Assembly (NCBI GenBank): GCA_964645155.1 | Contig: CAZYBG010000003.1 | Location: 7,093-71,092, forward strand | Direction of reading: 5' to 3' | Source of the DNA: an uncultured Rhodobacterales bacterium | GTDB taxonomy: Bacteria > Pseudomonadota > Alphaproteobacteria > Rhodobacterales > Rhodobacteraceae | DNA: 64,000 nt | Shown: piece after piece, positions 3,756 to 42,204 of the stretch | Layout of the letters: each line of letters starts with the position of its first letter | Numbering within the stretch: position 1 is the first letter of the stretch | Made by a program: the position numbers and the translations under genes | Notes under the pieces: model-generated | The model's input: the letters and a program-made list of their open reading frames with translations, nothing else | Told to the model about the DNA's origin: nothing | Databases searched by the model: none

Positions 3756-5645
3756 TCAGTCACCCAGGCGATAGGCCACGACCTGATCGGCCACCTGCGG
3801 CTTCAGGATCGAGTTGCCGCCCGCCACGAAGGCCACGTAGTCGACCCCCTCGTGGGTATAGACCGCCGGGATCGCCACCGCGGGGGCGGCCACGAGGTCC
3901 GACCACAGTTCCTCGCCCGTCGCCGCGTCGAGCGCGCGGACGCGGGCGTCCATCGAGGCGCCGAGGAACACCACGCCCCCGGCCGTCACCACCGGACCGC
4001 CGAGCGTGGGCGAACCCCAGGACGACGGGCCGTAGAAGCCCCATTGCTGCGACCGGCCAAACGGCACCTCGTAGAGCCGCTCGCCCGTCGTGAGGTCGTA
4101 GGCCGAGAATGTCCCGTAGGGCGGCGCCCAGCAGGGCAGGCCCAGCCGGTTGCGCCATTCGGTCAGTTCAATCCCATAGGGCGCGCCTTCCTGCGGGTAG
4201 AAGCCCGCCTCGTTGCCGCTGCCGCCGTCCTCGTATTCGTCGCGCGGGATCAGGCGGACGATCTGCACCACGCGCATCGAGTTGACATAGAGGATGCCGG
4301 TGCGCGGATCGACCGCCGCGCCGCCCCAGTTGTTGGCGCCGGCTGTGCCCGGATACATGATCGTGCCCACCTCGGAGGGCGGGGTGAAGATGCCCTCGTA
4401 GCGGTACTGTTCGCGCTCGCGCGAGCACTGACCGAGGCTTGTCGTGTCGCCGAGCCAGCTTACCGCCGGCATCTCGAACGGGTCGTTCGTCGGCGGCGGC
4501 ACCAGCGCGAAGGGCTGGGTCTCGGCCGCGACCTCGCCGTCGGCGTCGCTCGGCGGCACCGGGCGGTCCTCGATCGGGAAGAGCGGCGTGCCGTCGCGGC
4601 GGTCGAGGACGAAGAGAAAGCCCTGCTTCGTCGTCTGCACCAGCGCCGGCACGATCTGCCCGTCGCGGGTGATGTCGACAAGCTGCGGCGCGGCCGACGT
4701 GTCGTAGTCCCAGATGTCGTGGCGGACATGCTGGAAGTTCCAGCGCAGCTCGCCCGTCGCGACATCGACCGCCGCAACCGACGTGGCGAGCGGGATCGGG
4801 TCGATCCGGTTGCCGCCCCAGTAGTTCGGCGAGGGCGACGAGACGGGGACGTAGACGAGGCCGAGTTCGGGGTCGGCGGCCATCGATGCCCAGATATTGG
4901 CGGTGCCGGTCACCGGGATCAGGTCCTCGGGGATGAAGCCGAGGTCCCAGAGCAGTTCGCCCGTGCGCGCGTCGATCGCCATGAGGTTGCCCGGCGGCGC
5001 CACGGAGTACTCCCAGTCCATCCCCGCCCAGCCGAGCAGCAGCGTGTCGCCCACCACGGTCGGCGGCTGCAGGAGCGAGAACGGAAAGCGCGTGTTCCGG
5101 GTGTTCCACTGGTTGACGTCGAGCACCCCGCCTTCGGCGAAATCGGCGCAGGGGGTGCCGGTATCGGCATCGACCGCATGCAACCTCGCATCCATCGTGC
5201 CGAGGTAGACCCGCTTCTCGCAGGCACCTTCGGCGCCGCTTTCCCAATAGGCCACGCCGCGGTTCTTCAGCGCCGGCTGGGTCAGCGGCTCGAGCGTCGA
5301 CTGGCTGTCGTAGCTCCACCGCTCCGCCCCGGTCGCGGGATCGAGCGCGAGGATGCGGTAGAACGGCGTGCCGAGGTAGAGCGTGTCGTTGGCGTAGATC
5401 GGCGTCGCCGACCAGACCGTCTCGGGCAGCTCGCCCGAACCGTCCGACACATCGCCCGTCCGCACCTCCCAGGCGCGTTCGAGGCGGCCGACGCTTTCCG
5501 GCGTGAAGCCTTCGACATCGGCGAACTTCGTCGCGGCGAGGTCGCCGTTGTAGGTGTCCCATACGGGCTGGTCGGCGCCAGCGGCGGATGCCGCGCAGAG
5601 AATGCCGAGGGCGAGCGGAACGGGCAGCAGGGGCCGGCAGCTCAC
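3756..5645 (-). CDS. PQQ-dependent (quinoprotein) dehydrogenase, periplasmic, glucose/quinate-dehydrogenase-like
   Basis: Start set at GTG 5645, which overlaps the stop of the upstream membrane-protein gene (GTGA). Sec signal LALGILCAASAAGA/DQP. Repeated propeller blocks ALDPATGAERW, AVDADTG, AIDARTGELLW, AVDVATGELRW, ALDAATGEELW. The 5' part of the 835-aa track ORF is Arg/Gly-rich off-frame sequence. Confidence 0.8.
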   Translation of the reverse strand: MSCRPLLPVPLALGILCAASAAGADQPVWDTYNGDLAATKFADVEGFTPESVGRLERAWEVRTGDVSDGSGELPETVWSATPIYANDTLYLGTPFYRILALDPATGAERWSYDSQSTLEPLTQPALKNRGVAYWESGAEGACEKRVYLGTMDARLHAVDADTGTPCADFAEGGVLDVNQWNTRNTRFPFSLLQPPTVVGDTLLLGWAGMDWEYSVAPPGNLMAIDARTGELLWDLGFIPEDLIPVTGTANIWASMAADPELGLVYVPVSSPSPNYWGGNRIDPIPLATSVAAVDVATGELRWNFQHVRHDIWDYDTSAAPQLVDITRDGQIVPALVQTTKQGFLFVLDRRDGTPLFPIEDRPVPPSDADGEVAAETQPFALVPPPTNDPFEMPAVSWLGDTTSLGQCSREREQYRYEGIFTPPSEVGTIMYPGTAGANNWGGAAVDPRTGILYVNSMRVVQIVRLIPRDEYEDGGSGNEAGFYPQEGAPYGIELTEWRNRLGLPCWAPPYGTFSAYDLTTGERLYEVPFGRSQQWGFYGPSSWGSPTLGGPVVTAGGVVFLGASMDARVRALDAATGEELWSDLVAAPAVAIPAVYTHEGVDYVAFVAGGNSILKPQVADQVVAYRLGD

Positions 5646-6049
5646 GATGCCGCCCTCCGGCGCGCGACCGCGGCGCCGAGCGCAACCGCCGCGGCAAGCA
5701 GCATCGCCCCGCACATCAGGAACTGCATCAGGAAGTAGGCGGCCAGCGCAGTCAGGAGCGCGCCGACCACCACCAGCACCTCCAGCAGCGTAAGAAGGCC
5801 GCCGCGCAGTGCGGGCACCGCCGCGAGGAGCGCGCCGAGCGCGACGGCCACTGCGCCGACCAAGGCGAGGAGCGCGCCCGGCGTACCGGTCACGCCCGTT
5901 TCCTCGACGAGGTAGGCCCAAGCACCAAGGCCGGCGCCAGCGAGCGCGGGCACGGCTGCGAGGGCGTGGAACCGGTGGACACGGCCTTCGTCCCGCCAGG
6001 CGGTGGTCGCCACCGCCTGTCGATGCGTCATCACCCGTGCTGCGCCCAT
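5642..6049 (-). CDS. Small integral membrane protein (about 4 TM helices), translationally coupled to the PQQ dehydrogenase
   Basis: 135-aa ORF with long hydrophobic stretches (ALLALVGAVAVALGALLAAV, LLEVLVVVGALLTALAAYFLMQFLM). Its stop overlaps the GTG start of the dehydrogenase. Confidence 0.55.
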   Translation of the reverse strand: MGAARVMTHRQAVATTAWRDEGRVHRFHALAAVPALAGAGLGAWAYLVEETGVTGTPGALLALVGAVAVALGALLAAVPALRGGLLTLLEVLVVVGALLTALAAYFLMQFLMCGAMLLAAAVALGAAVARRRAAS

Positions 6050-6091
6050 GACAAATCCCTTTCCGTCCGCTGCCTAGCCTGCTGCCGGACA

Positions 6092-6117
6092 AACCGCGCC
6101 GTGCAGGCCAAGGTTCC
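6092..6117 (-). promoter_or_regulatory. EcfG-type promoter candidate (GGAAC-N17-GGTT) toward the membrane-protein/PQQ-dehydrogenase genes
   Basis: Plus strand shows AACC at 6092-6095 and GTTCC at 6113-6117. The -10 lies about 43 nt upstream of ATG 6049. Confidence 0.5.
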
Positions 6118-6120
6118 CGC

Positions 6121-6145
6121 GGAACGATCTCGGCACCCGGACGTT
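6121..6145 (+). promoter_or_regulatory. EcfG-type promoter candidate (GGAAC-N16-CGTT) toward ctaG-like/HemJ-like genes
   Basis: GGAAC 6121-6125, 16-nt spacer, CGTT 6142-6145. Confidence 0.5.
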
Positions 6146-6147
6146 CC
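6123..6147 (-). promoter_or_regulatory. EcfG-type promoter candidate (GGAAC-N16-CGTT) on the opposite strand of the same palindrome
   Basis: The reverse complement of 6143-6147 is GGAAC and of 6123-6126 is CGTT. GGAACG (6121-6126) and CGTTCC (6142-6147) form an inverted repeat. Confidence 0.5.
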
Positions 6148-6298
6148 ACGCTGCGACACCCCCGACAGAGACCGCGGGTGGCACTGGAGCGATGGGCGGG
6201 CACATGGGCGATCGGCAGGCGGCAGCAGACCCGGGAGCGACCTCCGGCAGGATCTGCCGCCAACCCGGCTCACCGCGCGTGACCGCCGGCCACCGGCG

Positions 6299-7000
6299 AT
6301 GATCGCGCTCGAGGGCATCTATTGCGGCCCGGCGCCCCTGCCGTCGGAGCTCTGGCTCCGCTGGAACCTCGATCCCGTCCCGATCGCAGGCCTCGCTGCT
6401 CTGGTGTGGCTGGTGCGCGGATCGGTCGCCGGGCTTGCGGGGGTCTTCGTACTTGCGGTGGCGTTCATCTCGCCGCTCTGCGCGCTGTCGGCCGCGCTTT
6501 TCGCCGCGCGGGCCGCCCATCACGTCCTGCTGGTCGCCGTCGCGGCGCCGCTTCTGGCGCTCGCCTTGCCGGCATCGCGCCCGGTGGCCGCGGGGCTGCC
6601 GTTTCTCGCCGCGACGGCGGCGCTCTGGGCGTGGCACGCGCCGGCGGCCTACGACTTGGCCCTTGGCAACGTCGCGGCCTACTGGCTGATGCAGCTCACG
6701 CTGCTCGGGACCGGTGTCTGGTTCTGGCGGGCCACGCTCTCGCGCCCTGCAGGCGCCGGGGCGCTCTGGGTGCTCGGCGCCTACATGGCGATGGGGCTGC
6801 TCGGCGCGCTTCTCACCTTCGCGCCGGTGCCGCTCTACGCGATCCACCGCGTCGCTCCGCTCGACTGGGGGCTGCTCCCGCTCGCCGACCAGCAGCTCGG
6901 CGGGCTTCTGATGTGGGTGCCCGCGGCCCTGCCCTACGCGGTGATGGGTCTCGTCCTCGGGCGGCGGTCGTGGCGCGCGATGCAGGCCGGCGCGGCATGA
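6299..7000 (+). CDS. ctaG: Cytochrome c oxidase assembly factor, CtaG (caa3-type, COG3336)-like membrane protein
   Basis: ATG at 6299 (MIALEGIYCG..). Polytopic membrane protein containing AAHHVLLV and LADQQLGGLLMWVP blocks, typical of the Bacillus-type CtaG family. Located next to an oxidase operon. Confidence 0.6.
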   Translation: MIALEGIYCGPAPLPSELWLRWNLDPVPIAGLAALVWLVRGSVAGLAGVFVLAVAFISPLCALSAALFAARAAHHVLLVAVAAPLLALALPASRPVAAGLPFLAATAALWAWHAPAAYDLALGNVAAYWLMQLTLLGTGVWFWRATLSRPAGAGALWVLGAYMAMGLLGALLTFAPVPLYAIHRVAPLDWGLLPLADQQLGGLLMWVPAALPYAVMGLVLGRRSWRAMQAGAA

Positions 7001-7506
7001 TGGCGATCGAGCCCCTGGTCCCGCATCTGAAGGCGCTGCATATCGCCGCGCTCGCGATCTGGGTCGCGGCGCTCTTCGCGATCCCGGCGATGCTGGCGCG
7101 CCACGATCCGGCGATCGGCCAGGACGACTACGCCCGGATCCGCCGGGCGACGCATTTCAGCTACACCGCCTTGATGACCCCGGCCGCGGTCATCGCCGTC
7201 GCTTCCGGCACCCTCCTCATCTTCCTGCGGGGCGCGTTCTTTCCCTGGCTTATGGCCAAGCTGGTGCTCGTGGCCATGATGGTCGTCTTCCATGCGTGGC
7301 TCGGCCACACCCTCGTCAAGGTCGCCGAGACAGAGGGCGAACACGACCCGCCGGAGCCGCTGCTGCCCTCGCTCATCCTGACGGTGCTGGTGGCGGGCGT
7401 GCTCGGCCTGGTGCTGGCGAAACCGGAACTCGACGAGATCGCGATGCCGGACTGGCTGACCGAGCCGAGGGGAGGTCAGCTCCCCTTCGCGGTTCCCAGA
7501 CGGTAG
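6997..7506 (+). CDS. HemJ/CopD-like (UPF0093-type) membrane protein
   Basis: ATGA overlap with ctaG. The N-terminus LKALHIAALAIWVAALFAIPAMLARHD matches the HemJ-family pattern (LKA-H-I..W.A.LF..P....H). 4-5 TM helices. Confidence 0.45.
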   Translation: MMAIEPLVPHLKALHIAALAIWVAALFAIPAMLARHDPAIGQDDYARIRRATHFSYTALMTPAAVIAVASGTLLIFLRGAFFPWLMAKLVLVAMMVVFHAWLGHTLVKVAETEGEHDPPEPLLPSLILTVLVAGVLGLVLAKPELDEIAMPDWLTEPRGGQLPFAVPRR

Positions 7507-7991
7507 TCGAAGACGAGCTTGCCGCCATGCCAGCCGGTCACCGCCACCACCAGCACGTTGAAGCCCGAGAGCAGGATGCCCCACGGCAGGATCGCCGACT
7601 CGTAGCCGGTGAGCCGCCAGCCCCAGTTGAGGCCGAGGAGCGACAGCAGCAGGACGGCGATGATGAAGTGCGTCCAGGCCGCAGCCCGCGCGCGGATGCC
7701 CCGCACCATCAGCAGTTCCATGGTTCCCGAGGCCCCCGCCGCGAGGCCGAAGAGAAAGGCCGTGCCCGACGCCCAGAGCGCCGCCCAGGCCCATTGCTGG
7801 CTGCCCGACCACCAGTAGAGCGCATCAGCCCCGAAGGTGCAGAAGGTCAGCGCCACCGGGAACGCGACCGTCATGGCGTGGATCGGGTGGCCCCAGACGG
7901 CCAGCCGAGATTCCGTCTCGTGAAAGCCTTCGCGCATGCTGATCGGGTCGATCAGCGTCTCGTCGCGATCCTGCACCATCTTGTCGGCCAT
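7476..7991 (-). CDS. DUF2231-like integral membrane protein
   Basis: 171-aa ORF. WGHPIHAMTVAFPVAL motif followed by 4 TM helices. Converges on and overlaps the previous gene by 31 nt. Confidence 0.5.
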   Translation of the reverse strand: MADKMVQDRDETLIDPISMREGFHETESRLAVWGHPIHAMTVAFPVALTFCTFGADALYWWSGSQQWAWAALWASGTAFLFGLAAGASGTMELLMVRGIRARAAAWTHFIIAVLLLSLLGLNWGWRLTGYESAILPWGILLSGFNVLVVAVTGWHGGKLVFDYRLGTAKGS

Positions 7992-8681
7992 CGCCCTGCC
8001 CTTTACCCGTCCGCTGCCGCCCTAACGCTCACCGCGCTTTCCGGTTGCACCGAACGGCTGTCGGCCCTGCATCCGGCCGGACCGGCGGCGGCGACCATCG
8101 CGACCTTGTGGTGGATCCTGCTCGGCGGGGCTGCGCTGATCTTCCTGTTCGTGATGCTGCTCCTCGCGCTCGCGCTGCGGGCGCGGCCGGGTGCCGGCCG
8201 CGGCCCGGCGCAGGCGGGCGAGCGTGTCTGGCTCTGGGGCCTGGGGCTTGCCTTTCCGCTCGTCGTTCTGGCCGCGCTCACCGCCTACGGGCTGACGGTG
8301 GGCGAGCGGCTGCGGCCGCGCCCGTCGGACCGCGTGGTGACGGTCGGCGCCGAGGCCCGGCAATGGGCGTGGCGCTTTACCTATGCCGACGCGCCGGGGC
8401 TGGCGACCGAGGGCGTCCTCCATATCCCGGCGGGCCGGCCGGTCGATGTGCGGATCACCTCGCAGGACGTGATCCATTCCTTCTGGGTGCCGCGGCTCGC
8501 CGGTAAGCTCGACGCGGTACCGGGCCACGTGAACGTCCTGCGCATCGAGGCGGACCGGCCCGGCGAATATGCCGGCGTCAGCAGCGAATACAGCGGGCCG
8601 GGCTATCTCGACCACGGCTTCGCGGTGATCGCGCACGACCCCGCGCAGTGGCCGGCAGCACTGTCGGAGGCCACCCGATGA
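7920..8681 (+). CDS. Heme-copper oxidase subunit II, QoxA/CyoA-like (lipoprotein signal, CuA ligands lost)
   Basis: Lipobox and following block LTALSGC-TERLSALHPAGPAA resemble QoxA/CyoA (..GGC..LDPKGP.A). Two TM helices. Cupredoxin domain with DVIHSFWVP, but the CuA motif C-x-E-x-C-G-x2-H-x2-M reads SSEYSGPGYLDH. The start is uncertain: GTG 7920 is the nearest canonical start upstream of the lipobox, and TTG 8106 is the alternative. Confidence 0.7.
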   Translation: MKAFAHADRVDQRLVAILHHLVGHRPALYPSAAALTLTALSGCTERLSALHPAGPAAATIATLWWILLGGAALIFLFVMLLLALALRARPGAGRGPAQAGERVWLWGLGLAFPLVVLAALTAYGLTVGERLRPRPSDRVVTVGAEARQWAWRFTYADAPGLATEGVLHIPAGRPVDVRITSQDVIHSFWVPRLAGKLDAVPGHVNVLRIEADRPGEYAGVSSEYSGPGYLDHGFAVIAHDPAQWPAALSEATR

Positions 8682-11194
8682 CCGCGCTCCGCCGCCACCG
8701 GGCGCTGACGCGCATCTGGACCTCCGACCCGGGCTGGCGCGGCTGGCTCACGACGGTCAACCACACCGATGTCGGGCGGATGTTCCTCGTCACCTCGACG
8801 GTGTTCTTTCTGGTCGGCGGCATCCTGGCCATGCTGATCCGGGCGCAGCTCGCCTCGCCGCGATCGGCCTTCCTCGGCGCCGAGGCCTACGCGCAGGTCT
8901 TCACGATGCACGGCACCGTGATGATGTTCCTCTTTGCCATTCCGCTGATCGAGGGCCTCGCGCTCTACCTCCTGCCGAAGCTGCTCGGCAGCCGCGATCT
9001 CGCCTTCCCGCGCCTCTCGGCCTTCGGCTTCTGGTGCTACGCCTTCGGCGGCACGTTCCTCCTCGGCGCGATGGTGGCCGGGCTCGCCCCCGACGGCGGC
9101 TGGTTCATGTACCCGCCGCTGACCTCGTCGACCTACAGCCCGGGGATCAATGCCGATGTCTGGCTCCTGGGCGTCACCTTCGTCGAGATCTCTGCCGTCG
9201 CGGCGGCGGTCGAGATCACCGTGACGATCCTGCGCTTCCGCGCGGCCGGAATGGCGCTGTCGCGGATGCCGATCCTGGCCTGGTACCTGCTGGTGGTCGC
9301 GGTGATGATCCTCACCGCCTTCCCGCCGCTGATCCTCGGCTCGGTCCTGCTCGAGCTGGAGCGGGCCTTCGGCCTGCCGTTCTTCGACCCTACGCGCGGC
9401 GGCGACGCGCTGCTCTGGCAGCACCTGTTCTGGCTTTTCGGCCATCCGGAGGTCTACATCATCTTCCTGCCTGCCGCGGGCGTCGTCTCCACCGTCCTGC
9501 CGGTCATGGCGCGGACCGAACTCGTGGGCTACGGCTGGGTCGTGGCGGCCGCGATCGCGCTCGGCGTGCTCAGCTTCGGCATCTGGGTCCACCACATGTT
9601 CGCGACCGGCATCCCGCACATGGGCCTCGCCTTCTTCTCGGCGGCCTCGACGCTGGTCGCGGTGCCGACGGCGGTGCAGGTCTTTGCCTGGATCGGTACG
9701 CTCTGGCGCGGCGCGCCCGAACTGCGGCTGCCGATGATGTGGATCCTGGCCTTCTTCGCAACCTTCGTGATCGGCGGACTGACCGGCGTCATGGTGGCGG
9801 TGGTGCCGTTCGACTGGCAGGTGCACGACACCCATTTCATCGTCGCGCACCTGCACTACGTGCTGGTCGGCGGCTTCGTCTTCCCGATGCTCGCCGGGCT
9901 CTACCACTGGCTGCCGCACCTGACCGGCCGGCGCCGCTTCTTCAAGCTGGGCGAAGTGGCGTTCTGGCTGATCTTCGCCGGCTTCCACCTGACCTTCCTG
10001 CTGGTCCACTGGGTCGGGCTGATGGGCCAGCGGCGGCGTACCTTCACCTACGAACCGGGCCAGGGCTGGGAGGTCATCAACCTGATCGCCTCGGTCGGCG
10101 GCTTCGTGACCGCGATCGGCTTCGGCGTGGTGCTGCTCGACATCGTGCTGAACGCCGCGGTGGCGGTGCGCGGCCGCCGCAACCCCTGGCGCGCCGGAAC
10201 GCTCGAATGGGCGCAGCCGACACCGGCGCCGGCCTACAACTTCGCCTCGATCCCGTGCGTTCAGGGCCGCGAGCCGCTGGCGGACGATCCCGGTATCGGC
10301 CTCAGGATCGCGCGTGGCGAGTTCCTGCTCGGCGATACGGCGCGCGGCCGGCGCGAGACGCTGATGGTCAGCGTGGCAACGGGCCGGCCCGCGGCGGTCG
10401 TGGTCTTTCCCGGCAACACCGCGCTGCCGATGCTGCTTGCGGCGGTCACCGGCAGCTTCTTCGCCGGCGTGCTCTTCAAGCTCTACTGGCTCATCCCGCT
10501 TGCGGTGCTCGGCATCGCGGCGCTGGCGATGCACTGGGCCTGGCAGCTCGGCACCACCGCCGACGAGGGGCCGGTCGATGCCGGGATGGGCCTCCGTCTG
10601 CCGCTCGCCTCCGAGACGCCGGACCCGCCGGGCTGGTGGGGCTCGCTGTTCCTTCTGCTGGCCGATGCCGTGCTCTTCGGCGCGCTTCTCTTCGGCTATG
10701 CCTTCCTCTGGACGGTCGCCCCGAACTGGCCGCCGCCCGCCTATCCCGCGCCCGAGGCGCTGGGGCTCGCGCTCGCCGCGGCGGGTGCCGCGGCCGCGGC
10801 GGCGGGCCCCCGGCTTGCCGGCGGTGCCATCGCCCGCGGCGGCGGCACCCGGGCGGGGGCGGTTCGGGGGGCGGTCCGGGGGGCGTTTCCGGGGTTGGTC
10901 CTCGGGCTCGCCGGCTGCGGCGCGCTTTGCGGCGCGGCGGCGACGCTCGCGCTCGCCGCCGATCCGACCGGCCATGCGCATGGCGCGACGCTCTGGGCGA
11001 TCGCGGGCTACATCGTGCTCCACGCCGCGCTGGCGGGCCTGATGCACCTCTACCTCATCGCCCGGGTGGCGCGCGGCTACGCCTCGCCCGCACGGATCGG
11101 CGAGGCGCGGATCCTGCGGCTCTGGGCCGACTGGGCGGCCGTGACGGCGCTGGCGGGGCTTGCCGCCGGCTGGGCGCCGGGGGTCGCGGCATGA
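8678..11194 (+). CDS. Heme-copper oxidase subunit I fused to a subunit III-like C-terminal domain
   Basis: ATGA overlap with subunit II. Subunit I motifs are all present: FTMHGTVMMF, WLFGHPEVYIIFLPAAG, WVHHMFATG, HDTHFIVAHLHYV. The C-terminal ~290 aa carry subunit III-like helices (GWWGSLFLLLADAVLFGALLFGYAFLW). Confidence 0.85.
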   Translation: MTALRRHRALTRIWTSDPGWRGWLTTVNHTDVGRMFLVTSTVFFLVGGILAMLIRAQLASPRSAFLGAEAYAQVFTMHGTVMMFLFAIPLIEGLALYLLPKLLGSRDLAFPRLSAFGFWCYAFGGTFLLGAMVAGLAPDGGWFMYPPLTSSTYSPGINADVWLLGVTFVEISAVAAAVEITVTILRFRAAGMALSRMPILAWYLLVVAVMILTAFPPLILGSVLLELERAFGLPFFDPTRGGDALLWQHLFWLFGHPEVYIIFLPAAGVVSTVLPVMARTELVGYGWVVAAAIALGVLSFGIWVHHMFATGIPHMGLAFFSAASTLVAVPTAVQVFAWIGTLWRGAPELRLPMMWILAFFATFVIGGLTGVMVAVVPFDWQVHDTHFIVAHLHYVLVGGFVFPMLAGLYHWLPHLTGRRRFFKLGEVAFWLIFAGFHLTFLLVHWVGLMGQRRRTFTYEPGQGWEVINLIASVGGFVTAIGFGVVLLDIVLNAAVAVRGRRNPWRAGTLEWAQPTPAPAYNFASIPCVQGREPLADDPGIGLRIARGEFLLGDTARGRRETLMVSVATGRPAAVVVFPGNTALPMLLAAVTGSFFAGVLFKLYWLIPLAVLGIAALAMHWAWQLGTTADEGPVDAGMGLRLPLASETPDPPGWWGSLFLLLADAVLFGALLFGYAFLWTVAPNWPPPAYPAPEALGLALAAAGAAAAAAGPRLAGGAIARGGGTRAGAVRGAVRGAFPGLVLGLAGCGALCGAAATLALAADPTGHAHGATLWAIAGYIVLHAALAGLMHLYLIARVARGYASPARIGEARILRLWADWAAVTALAGLAAGWAPGVAA

Positions 11195-11493
11195 CGCTGA
11201 TCCTGCGCCTTTCGCTGCCGCTGTCGCTGTGGCTCGCCTGCTTCAGCGCCGTCTACGGGCTGCAGGGCCTGGCCTGCTCGCGCCACTGGCCGCCGGGGCT
11301 CGAGGCCCGCCCGGTGCTGGTCGGAGCCGCTGCGCTCGCGATCCTGCTGCAGCTCGGGCTGTTCCGGCTGGCTGCGCGGGACCCGGCCGGCGCCGACCCG
11401 GCCGCCAAGCTTGCGTTGCCGCTCTGGCTGACCGCGCTCGTTGCCTCCGGCTGGACGCTGCTGCCCACCGTCTTCACCACGATCTGCGGCTGA
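11191..11493 (+). CDS. Small membrane protein (possible oxidase subunit IV-like)
   Basis: 100-aa ORF with ATGA overlap to subunit I/III. Three hydrophobic segments. Position is equivalent to small subunits in oxidase operons. Confidence 0.45.
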   Translation: MTLILRLSLPLSLWLACFSAVYGLQGLACSRHWPPGLEARPVLVGAAALAILLQLGLFRLAARDPAGADPAAKLALPLWLTALVASGWTLLPTVFTTICG

Positions 11494-40721: not shown

Positions 40722-41225
40722 TCAGGCGGCCATCCGGTTCAGCCGCTCCTCGGCGACGCGCGAAAGCTTGGCGTCGGCCGCCTTCTCCTCCTCCAGCGTC
40801 TGCTTCAGAAGCTCGGCGCAATCGGTCCGGCCGAGTTCCTGCGACCAGGCGATCAGGGTTCCGTAGCGGGTGATCTCGTAGTGCTCGACCGCCTGCGCGG
40901 ACGCGGCGATGGCGGCATCGAGGACGCTCGAATCCTCGACCTCGCTGGCGATCTCCTCGGCTTCCTTGATGATGCCGTCGATCGCCGGGCAGTTGGTTCC
41001 GCCGGCTTCCTCACCCAGCAGCGCGAACACCTGCTCCAGCCGCTCGACCTGCCGCTCGGTCTCGTGCAGGTGCGCCTGCAGTCCGTCGCGCAGCGCCCCT
41101 TCCGAGGCCTTGTCGATCATCTTCGGCAGGGCGTTCACGATCTGCTTCTCGGCGTAGTAGATGTCGCGAAGCTGGTGCATGTAGAGGTCGTCCATCGACT
41201 GGATGTCATAGGAAAAAAGCGCCAT
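40722..41225 (-). CDS. DUF892 (YciE/YciF-like) ferritin-like stress protein
   Basis: 167 aa. LYMHQLRDIYYAEKQIVNALPKM and AVEHYEITRYGTLIAW are signature blocks. Confidence 0.85.
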   Translation of the reverse strand: MALFSYDIQSMDDLYMHQLRDIYYAEKQIVNALPKMIDKASEGALRDGLQAHLHETERQVERLEQVFALLGEEAGGTNCPAIDGIIKEAEEIASEVEDSSVLDAAIAASAQAVEHYEITRYGTLIAWSQELGRTDCAELLKQTLEEEKAADAKLSRVAEERLNRMAA

Positions 41226-41324
41226 TCATGGCCTCCTGACTTCGGGTTGCGTCGTTCATGGGGCGGGGTCGATCGCCAGCTCGGTGACCACTGCCAACCG
41301 TCTGTCGCCCCTCAGGGCAGGGGC

Positions 41325-41349
41325 AACCGCAGCGCCCGCCGATTGTTCC
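41325..41349 (-). promoter_or_regulatory. EcfG-type promoter candidate (GGAAC-N16-GGTT) toward the DUF892 gene
   Basis: Plus strand AACC 41325-41328 and GTTCC 41345-41349, about 100 nt upstream of ATG 41225. Confidence 0.55.
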
Positions 41350-41389
41350 CCGATCGGCGGCCCGGCCACGGCCCGGTCCGATGGCACAG

Positions 41390-41875
41390 TCAGATCGCCC
41401 GGTCGCCGAGTTCCGCCATCACCATCGCGCGGGCGCGGTTCACGCGGCTCTTGATCGTGCCGACCTCGCAGCCGCAGATGCGGGCCGCCGTCTCGTAGCT
41501 TTCGCCCATCATCACGACCAGGACGAGCGTCTCGCGGTAGTGGTTCGGCAGGCGCTGAACCACCCTCATCAGCTCGCCGCCGCGCACCACCCACTCCTGG
41601 GTCGAGGCGCTCGATGCCGTGCCCGACACGCAGTCCTCCGAACCGGTGCGCTCGCGCTTGGTCTTGGCCAGCGTGTTGAAGAACGAATTGCGCATGATCG
41701 TGAATAGCCACGCCCGCAGCCGCGTGCCCGGGGTGAAGCTGTCGATGTTCGCCAGCGCCCGCACCAGCGTGTCCTGGACAAGATCATCGGCATCGGGGCG
41801 GTTGCGGCACAGGACATAGGCATAGGCCCTGAGCGCCGGCAGGAGCGCCACGACATCGGCCCGGACATCCGGCAT
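41390..41875 (-). CDS. ecfG: ECF sigma factor, EcfG/RpoE2-type (general stress response)
   Basis: ATG 41875. LPALRAYAYVLCRNRPDADDLVQDTLVRALANIDSFTPGTRLRAWLFTIMRN and ICGCEVGTIKSRVNRAR closely follow the S. meliloti RpoE2 pattern as I recall it. Confidence 0.8.
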   Translation of the reverse strand: MPDVRADVVALLPALRAYAYVLCRNRPDADDLVQDTLVRALANIDSFTPGTRLRAWLFTIMRNSFFNTLAKTKRERTGSEDCVSGTASSASTQEWVVRGGELMRVVQRLPNHYRETLVLVVMMGESYETAARICGCEVGTIKSRVNRARAMVMAELGDRAI

Positions 41876-41951
41876 GTTCCTTGCTGCTTCGACCACGTGT
41901 TGCGAACCCGTCGACAGAGACGATACCCCCGAGCGGGGGCGTTGCGCGCAT

Positions 41952-41977
41952 AACGCCGTTGTCGCGACAGCAGTTCC
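41952..41977 (-). promoter_or_regulatory. EcfG-type promoter candidate (GGAAC-N17-CGTT), autoregulatory position upstream of ecfG
   Basis: Plus strand AACG 41952-41955 and GTTCC 41973-41977. Lies between the NepR-like ORF stop (42019) and the ecfG ATG (41875). Confidence 0.6.
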
Positions 41978-42018
41978 GGAGCTTTCCAACCCCCGGTAGA
42001 GCCGGGCGGCGGCGGCGC

Positions 42019-42204
42019 TCAGCCCTTCGGGCGGGCGCGATCCGATCCCCGGTTCACCTGACAGATCGCATCGTCGAGGCGGCGGGCGAGGTCGACGATC
42101 TCGGCAGGCGCGCCGCTGCGTTCGAAGGCCTGCAGGAGTTCGGAGAAGGCGGCGGCCAGCTCTTCATCCACGCGGGAGGGATCGGATTTGGGGTCGCCTG
42201 ACAT
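42019..42204 (-). CDS. nepR: Small NepR-like anti-sigma factor candidate
   Basis: 61-aa ORF directly upstream of ecfG. Helical segment ELAAAFSELLQAFERSGAPAEIVDLARRLDDAI loosely fits the NepR pattern. Weak call. Confidence 0.4.
   Translation of the reverse strand: MSGDPKSDPSRVDEELAAAFSELLQAFERSGAPAEIVDLARRLDDAICQVNRGSDRARPKG

Follow-up and report, generated by a model that had tools for sequence, protein, structure and literature searches.

Two quinol oxidases, QoxBA and QxtAB, have been listed for Rhodobacter sphaeroides, and deletion of QoxBA there had no effect on growth (PMC3152904). Subunits I and III form one polypeptide in fused caa3 enzymes (Thermus thermophilus CaaAB, PDB 2YEV; KEGG coxAC), and the bo3/aa3-600 quinol oxidases (CyoABCD of Escherichia coli, QoxABCD of Bacillus subtilis) have a lipoprotein subunit II that lacks CuA. 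An oxidase operon with both features was analyzed in a 64,000-nucleotide stretch of DNA from an uncultured Rhodobacterales bacterium (contig CAZYBG010000003.1), which in its entirety is called the window here. The comparisons described below indicate that this operon is the ortholog of R. sphaeroides qoxBA and belongs to a widespread, named and poorly understood kind. It probably encodes an A1-type, O2-reducing oxidase derived from the caa3 lineage, an accessory and stress-induced enzyme that is predicted to oxidize ubiquinol. The family was reportedly named by Mouncey and colleagues in 2000 and is widespread, so the novelty implied by a first-pass annotation of the window, made from its letters alone, did not hold. 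The genes of the oxidase itself are listed here.

7920..8681, plus strand: subunit II (QoxB-like), with an LSGC lipobox, two transmembrane (TM) helices and a CuA-less cupredoxin domain whose loop is SSEYSGPGYLDH (Pfam COX2)
8678..10405, plus strand: subunit I core (QoxA-like), A1-type with HPEVY (Pfam COX1, NCBIfam CtaD_CoxA)
10406..11194, plus strand: fused seven-helix subunit III domain, one polypeptide with subunit I (hhalign, Foldseek)
11191..11493, plus strand: 100-aa membrane protein, subunit IV by position only (homologs at the same position)

Subunit II was aligned with 14 homologs, with E. coli CyoA and with subunits II from the PDB. Serine replaces both bridging cysteines of the CuA loop, tyrosine the loop histidine and histidine the axial methionine; the first cupredoxin histidine (DVIHSFWVP) is retained, and it is invariant across the family. 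The two serines and the surviving histidine had been pointed out in the first-pass annotation, and the alignments, in which the CuA ligands were not recovered, bear this out. Among the 120 best cluster representatives from a protein collection, both cysteines are missing in every one that could be scored (112/112). In close homologs the first cysteine position is occupied by S, G, T, N or R and the second by S or N, and no conserved replacement metal site was apparent in the 112 scored representatives. A new metal site built from H186, E223, Y229 and H232 was considered and not retained as a firm proposal, as the histidine at the methionine position is phenylalanine in 3 of 9 CuA-less loci; the variation at the first cysteine position disfavors it further. 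The Pfam COX2 model matched subunit II with 53.7 bits, and the subunit II profile found its best PDB match in the Thermus subunit II (114 bits).

Most automatic annotations state that genes of this kind encode a cytochrome c oxidase. The subunit I score against NCBIfam CtaD_CoxA (690 bits, cut-off 670.75; Pfam COX1 gave 473 bits) agrees with that assignment, as do the database names, and the closest relatives are indeed cytochrome c oxidases. We nevertheless consider it very improbable, because the bridging cysteines, second histidine and methionine of CuA have been lost in every close homolog, the score of subunit II against the CoxB hidden Markov model (HMM) is below the cut-off (132.7 versus 147.7), and there is no heme c domain, the 16-residue tail that follows the cupredoxin domain of subunit II containing no CxxCH. 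The earlier view that this is not a conventional CuA-dependent cytochrome c oxidase is upheld by the loss of the CuA ligands. Annotation pipelines do not agree on a label for these genes ("cytochrome c oxidase", "cytochrome B", "cbb3-type"), and this mislabelling distorts the respiratory chains described for many Alphaproteobacteria, including R. sphaeroides, Sinorhizobium meliloti, Paracoccus and Microvirga.

The copper-less cupredoxin domain is under purifying selection, with no relaxation of constraint. The ratio of subunit II to subunit I divergence is 1.25 in the CuA-less clade versus 1.57 and 1.48 in two CuA-containing groups, and subunits II of the CuA-less clade differ consistently from their kin almost only at the ligand positions and at one glutamate. 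The LSGC lipobox and the L.P.GP.A block behind it are present as described in the first-pass annotation, which had taken them for a sign of a quinol oxidase. Because the block LSGC..LS.L.PAGP.A is found equally in CuA-containing sisters, it is inherited and no mark of quinol oxidases.

Three further genes precede the oxidase genes or overlap them.

6299..7000, plus strand: CtaG-like oxidase assembly factor (Caa3_CtaG, membrane copper-insertion type; Pfam PF09678, 87.4 bits, E 1.2e-24)
6997..7506, plus strand: UPF0093/HemJ-CopD-like membrane protein, a diverged paralog (Pfam PF03653, 51 bits)
7476..7991, minus strand: DUF2231 four-helix membrane protein (Pfam PF09990, 119 bits)

The homologous locus of R. 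sphaeroides 2.4.1 lies on chromosome II (CP000144) and consists, in order, of UPF0093, DUF2231 (minus strand, overlapping both neighbors), subunit II, an 825-aa subunit I and a 102-aa open reading frame (ORF). R. sphaeroides is the nearest neighbor of the window in the subunit I tree, with 80% identity in the core, and the subunits II are 67% identical. The 90% cluster of the R. sphaeroides subunit II includes UniProt Q9Z606 / GenBank AAD20226.1, which was deposited as "quinol oxidase subunit II". This entry we take to be the QoxB of Mouncey et al. 2000 (FEMS Microbiol Lett 192:205). QoxBA likewise has a CuA-less loop (S.E.SG.GY..H), a lipobox and a GGAAC-N16-CGTT motif upstream. The two loci differ in that R. 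sphaeroides has no CtaG-like gene upstream, while the window and most other relatives do, and has an extracytoplasmic function (ECF) sigma/anti-sigma pair immediately downstream; a 13-residue insert in subunit III is the window's only. The ECF sigma gene beside qoxBA was dropped as a candidate conserved partner, as it is not syntenic in other loci, and the interruption of qoxA seen in another assembly of R. sphaeroides (L002) is due to an assembly gap of Ns and not to biology.

A scan of a genome collection with the subunit II alignment yielded 80 named loci. The order CtaG, UPF0093, DUF2231 (minus strand), subunit II and subunit I+III is kept in many Alphaproteobacteria, and in several Gamma- and Betaproteobacteria loci CtaG is downstream instead. 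The only CuA-less loci among those scanned were the window, R. sphaeroides and seven others, from Microvirga, Loktanella, Oceaniovalibus, Neptunicoccus, a Rhizobium plasmid, Marinovum and Acuticoccus. Relatives with the same synteny otherwise retain C..C..H..M. These CuA-containing sisters (Pseudotabrizicola, Agrobacterium, Stappia, Pseudomonas songnenensis; L050-L065, L098) share with the window the synteny, the lipobox block, the I+III fusion and a glutamine in place of the K-channel lysine, and several also have the small downstream ORF. Variants of the site were seen in Sphingomonas (L045), Stakelama (L048), Limnobacter (L052) and Reyranella (L057), where the methionine has become histidine (C.E.CG.GH..H), and in Hyphomonas (L046), where both cysteines are present and histidine is replaced by tyrosine and methionine by histidine (C.E.CG.GY..H). 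Deeper members of the clade carry a C-terminal CxxCH domain of about 115 residues on subunit II and are of the caa3 type.

A tree was calculated from 94 subunit I cores (IQ-TREE quick run, LG+C20, with canonical aa3 enzymes as the outgroup). The CuA-less enzymes form a single clade (SH-aLRT 100) that is sister to the Stakelama Met-to-His enzyme (support 95) and nested in the DUF2231-syntenic clade (96), which in turn has the caa3-type fused enzymes as its sister group. On a long branch of their own are E. coli CyoB and two of its equivalogs from relatives. The phylogenetic placement proposed in the first-pass annotation has thereby been carried out, and it puts subunit I among the A-type oxidases, inside the fused caa3-related clade and away from CyoB. 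The window shares its one-polypeptide subunit I+III with the caa3 enzymes and is nested in a clade whose deeper members have the fusion of subunit II to cytochrome c; it differs from them in having neither the cytochrome c domain nor CuA, in its A1-type HPEVY and in the glutamine for the K-channel lysine.

The resemblance to bo3 is striking in the subunit II loop, which reads SASYSGPGF in E. coli and SSEYSGPGY in the window. A common origin with bo3, considered on account of the similar SxxYSGPG loop, was rejected by the tree and by an approximately unbiased (AU) test, in which forcing the CuA-less clade together with CyoB cost 104 log-likelihood units (p = 0.0006), the group having been defined after the tree was seen and the hypothesis itself having come from the first-pass annotation. 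The window represents a separate lineage with subunit III fused, no CyoD homolog and no cyoE in the operon, and its subunit I scored 440 bits with the CyoB HMM and 466 bits with the QoxB HMM, far under the cut-offs of 1020 and 1015. The statement that the operon is unlike cyoABCDE or qoxABCD is thus confirmed. The loss of CuA was independent of that in the bo3/aa3-600 quinol oxidases, and it appears recent, given that relatives with the same synteny contain CuA and include intermediate states. The likely order of events was loss of the cytochrome c domain, Met to His, His to Tyr and then loss of the cysteines, a direction that depends on the rooting. In the explanation we favor, the lineage would thus descend from caa3-type, I+III-fused cytochrome c oxidases that lost the cytochrome c domain first and CuA next. 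The family offers a finely graded natural series for the change of electron donor in heme-copper oxidases, in a genetically tractable laboratory species.

Residues of subunit I are numbered as in the R. sphaeroides aa3 enzyme. The motifs FTMHGTV, HPEVY, HHMF and HDTHFIVAHLHYV were found, and the six histidine ligands (low-spin heme, high-spin heme and CuB) are retained along with Y288, E286, D132, W172, the heme-propionate arginine pair and the His-Asp of the Mg site. None of the six histidines varies, nor does the cross-linked tyrosine of HPEVY, among the 8 CuA-less sequences or their relatives, and the O2-reducing active site is intact. The first-pass annotation was correct in that the canonical ligands are kept, and incorrect in that every channel signature would be. 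K362 of the K channel is replaced by glutamine (PTAVQVF), as in 71 of 73 fused-clade sequences, with or without CuA, and no lysine is invariant anywhere in the aligned subunit I+III homologs. The D channel retains D132 and E286; N121 has been replaced by I, V or L, N139 by S or T and N140 by A, the serine of the N139 region lying in PRLSAF. In the aa3 and CyoB controls of this alignment the canonical channel residues are present, with lysine at position 362. An extra conserved glutamate is located one helical turn before the N121 position (PLIEGL). No description of the fused-clade glutamine for lysine, the lost asparagines or the extra glutamate was found in the literature covered. Complete caa3-type enzymes share the Lys-to-Gln and asparagine changes, which therefore predate the loss of CuA. 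The family provides a natural test of whether an A-type oxidase is able to function with glutamine for the K-channel lysine.

These replacements, together with the loss of the electron-entry center, would also suit an enzyme that does not conserve energy, whether a low-turnover or uncoupled oxygen- or stress-scavenger or a relic, largely inactive and retained for some other role, and both the R. sphaeroides deletion without growth phenotype (PMC3152904) and the stress-type promoter motif ahead of the cluster point in the same direction. We judge this quite unlikely. The catalytic ligands, Y288, E286 and D132 are invariant, purifying selection is strong across orders, and the lysine and asparagine changes are shared with caa3-type enzymes that contain CuA and heme c, so that they are compatible with a working oxidase.

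The fusion of subunit III to subunit I, claimed in the first-pass annotation, is real, on the evidence of a COX3 profile and a fold search. The Pfam COX3 model did not match the C-terminal domain at E ≤ 10, an HMM search of the PDB with a profile of this domain gave no match, and an hhalign comparison with E. coli CyoC as a single sequence was negative. Against an alignment of 21 COX3 proteins from the window's own genome and relatives, hhalign gave a probability of 90.5% and an E of 1.4e-6 over 166 columns, pairing the conserved aspartate of "LLLAD" with the glutamate in the "SE" motif of COX3. AlphaFold2 modeled the last 262 residues as seven helices (pLDDT 76, pTM 0.73), and the top 42 PDB matches found with this model by Foldseek are all subunit III chains, the best of them chain C of the R. 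sphaeroides aa3 enzyme (1m56_C; TM-score 0.69, E 1.4e-5). BLASTP against E. coli CyoB reaches residue 620, so the first two extra helices, those following the 12-helix core, match TM13-14 of CyoB. The length given earlier, 848 aa, applies to a start at a GTG upstream of the ATG at 8678; from that ATG the fused ORF (8678-11194) encodes 838 aa. A loop of subunit III contains a Gly/Arg/Ala-rich insert of 13 residues, GTRAGAVRGAVRG (about 10844-10882), which is missing in all 29 aligned homologs.

The CtaG-like gene is syntenic in most alphaproteobacterial relatives, and the UPF0093 gene is syntenic in relatives as well. The UPF0093 protein scored 44 bits with the HemJ model TIGR00701 (cut-off 138 bits), and the true housekeeping HemJ is encoded on another contig of the same genome (C20, 1146-1571; 152 bits, over the cut-off); the protein of the cluster is a diverged HemJ paralog. 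In DUF2231, H35, H38 and H108 are invariant in the alignment. Its AlphaFold model is a four-helix bundle (pLDDT 89.5) for which a fold search of the PDB gave no significant match (best E 0.12), and no functional literature on DUF2231 was found. The 100-aa membrane protein that the first-pass annotation placed after subunit I+III is encoded there, and its family has the motif W.A.FSA.YGL[HQ]GL.C with two conserved cysteines, one of them C-terminal. It had no Pfam or NCBIfam match and no similarity to E. coli CyoD. Homologs occupy the same position in L001, L038-L045, L050, L054, L056 and L065, accompanying CuA-less and CuA-containing oxidases alike.

With CuA gone, a partner protein might donate the electrons, either DUF2231 or UPF0093 as a membrane b-type cytochrome or a carrier in the periplasm that binds to the copper-less cupredoxin domain. 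Both membrane proteins have invariant histidines in TM helices, their genes are tightly syntenic with the oxidase genes and even overlap them, and the best fold neighbors of DUF2231 are the heme-handling CcmF and cytochrome b561; the cupredoxin domain is strongly constrained, and subunit II retains the tryptophan of the cytochrome c entry motif QW.W. A partner as donor nonetheless seems unlikely to us. The fold matches are non-significant, DUF2231 is on the opposite strand, and CtaG, a copper-insertion factor, is among the neighbors, which points to roles in assembly. Since the same accessory genes also stand beside relatives that contain CuA, they did not originate as its replacement. Because all three of UPF0093, DUF2231 and the small ORF accompany CuA-containing oxidases too, we read them as probable assembly or structural partners and not as a substitute for CuA; CtaG, the UPF0093 paralog and DUF2231 would be helpers in cofactor assembly.

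Two further features concern the possible regulation of the cluster.

6121..6145, plus strand: EcfG-type promoter-like motif GGAAC-N16-CGTT (consensus match; palindromic, minus-strand reading 6123-6147)
40722-42200, minus strand: general-stress locus with an EcfG-like ECF sigma factor (PhyR_sigma2 match; GGAAC-N17-CGTT at 41952-41977)

The motif at 6121 precedes the start of the ctaG-like gene by 178 nt. A search of the window gave 4 matches versus 1.0 expected, and no shuffle gave 4; another of the matches is located 5' of the window's EcfG-like sigma gene. The same motif occurs in R. sphaeroides 130 nt upstream of UPF0093, the first gene of the cluster there, and 10 of 26 related loci have a slightly relaxed form within 480 nt 5' of the cluster's first gene, compared to 4% of random windows. 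The ECF sigma factor of the window scored 54 bits with the PhyR sigma2 family model (cut-off 27); its gene is preceded by a NepR-like small ORF and by the motif, and is itself followed by the gene of a DUF892 (YciE/YciF-like) stress protein. Control of the oxidase cluster by the alphaproteobacterial general stress response is plausible from these consensus matches. If the EcfG general-stress sigma factor does turn the oxidase on, this would explain why QoxBA had no phenotype in laboratory cultures; such control would give a concrete reason why the enzyme has been overlooked, and a means of inducing it.

The draft genome to which the window belongs consists of 249 contigs. It encodes a canonical aa3 oxidase split over the contig ends of C88 and C129, a cbb3 oxidase (C18/C117) and a cytochrome bd oxidase (C23), and no CyoB-type oxidase was found among the 249 contigs. 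This set is the same as in R. sphaeroides, and the enzyme of the window would serve as an accessory oxidase alongside aa3, cbb3 and bd. As the first-pass annotation noted, the operon contains no heme O synthase gene; ctaB is located with ctaE on contig C67, and heme A synthase (ctaA) is on C85. Hemes O and A are both available.

With neither CuA nor heme c, the low-spin heme would most likely receive electrons directly from membrane ubiquinol, at a predicted site that would have evolved independently of the bo3 site. The option of a quinol oxidase had been raised in the first-pass annotation. It agrees with the name under which the ortholog was deposited and disagrees with the missing bo3 quinol site. 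Several observations weigh against ubiquinol oxidation by a stress-induced enzyme. No quinol site could be assigned in the alignment with CyoB: of the bo3 residues, R71 is replaced by V or I and D75 by L, H98 is variable, and a hydrophobic TM0 helix was not found at the N-terminus of subunit I. Q101 is retained, but it is present in CuA-containing fused-clade relatives too. The substitutions specific to the CuA-less clade in subunit I are only a handful, among them Pro to Arg directly before the heme-propionate arginine pair, giving RRR, Met in place of the Arg that is otherwise invariant where helix 1 starts, and several changes in the N-terminal 35 residues; these are candidate donor-site positions and nothing more. 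Subunit II departs from its CuA-containing kin almost solely at the ligand positions. The absent K-channel lysine raises a question about the level of activity the enzyme may have, and no report of activity for any family member was found in the literature covered, which lay outside Mouncey 2000 and Murali 2022. The promoter motif is a consensus match and not a mapped start site, and it appears in fewer than half of the related loci.

We advance more tentatively, rating it at slightly under an even chance, that quinol oxidation was invented very recently and independently by the QoxBA clade, within a lineage of caa3-type cytochrome c oxidases, with living intermediates (axial histidine; Cys-Cys with tyrosine; no copper) and a parent clade that works as a whole without the supposedly essential K-channel lysine. 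If so, the few clade-specific substitutions (Pro to Arg, N-terminal 35 residues) would pinpoint the new quinol or electron-entry site, and would show how few mutations turn a cytochrome c oxidase into a quinol oxidase.

The genes of the cluster are tightly packed. ATGA overlaps join subunit II to subunit I (8678-8681) and subunit I to the small ORF (11191-11194), as the first-pass annotation stated for the operon, and from the ORF coordinates the ctaG/UPF0093 junction is another (6997-7000). The DUF2231 gene overlaps UPF0093 tail-to-tail by 31 nt (7476-7506) and the start of subunit II head-to-head by up to 72 nt (7920-7991), and the double overlap is kept in R. sphaeroides (L001, 7518-7548 and 8001-8033). 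For subunit II, the GTG at 7920 is the sole canonical in-frame start 5' of the lipobox cysteine. The gene call in the window's own genome (P0002) begins at a TTG at 8106, by which the signal peptide and lipobox are lost, and three start calls for the R. sphaeroides gene give 261, 234 and 181 aa; these divergent calls make the start codon uncertain. Conservation of DR(V/I)DQ 5' of the lipobox is an antisense shadow of the DUF2231 motif L(I/V)DPI, and the subunit II promoter and true start must fall within DUF2231 coding sequence.

The minus strand at 3756-6263 encodes a membrane-bound PQQ-dependent dehydrogenase, of the glucose/quinate/shikimate kind (Pfam PQQ 614 bits; TIGR03074 under its cut-off), whose gene diverges from those for oxidase assembly. 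This neighbor is not conserved in R. sphaeroides, and in the window the palindromic motif at 6121-6147 is common to the dehydrogenase and the oxidase-assembly genes.

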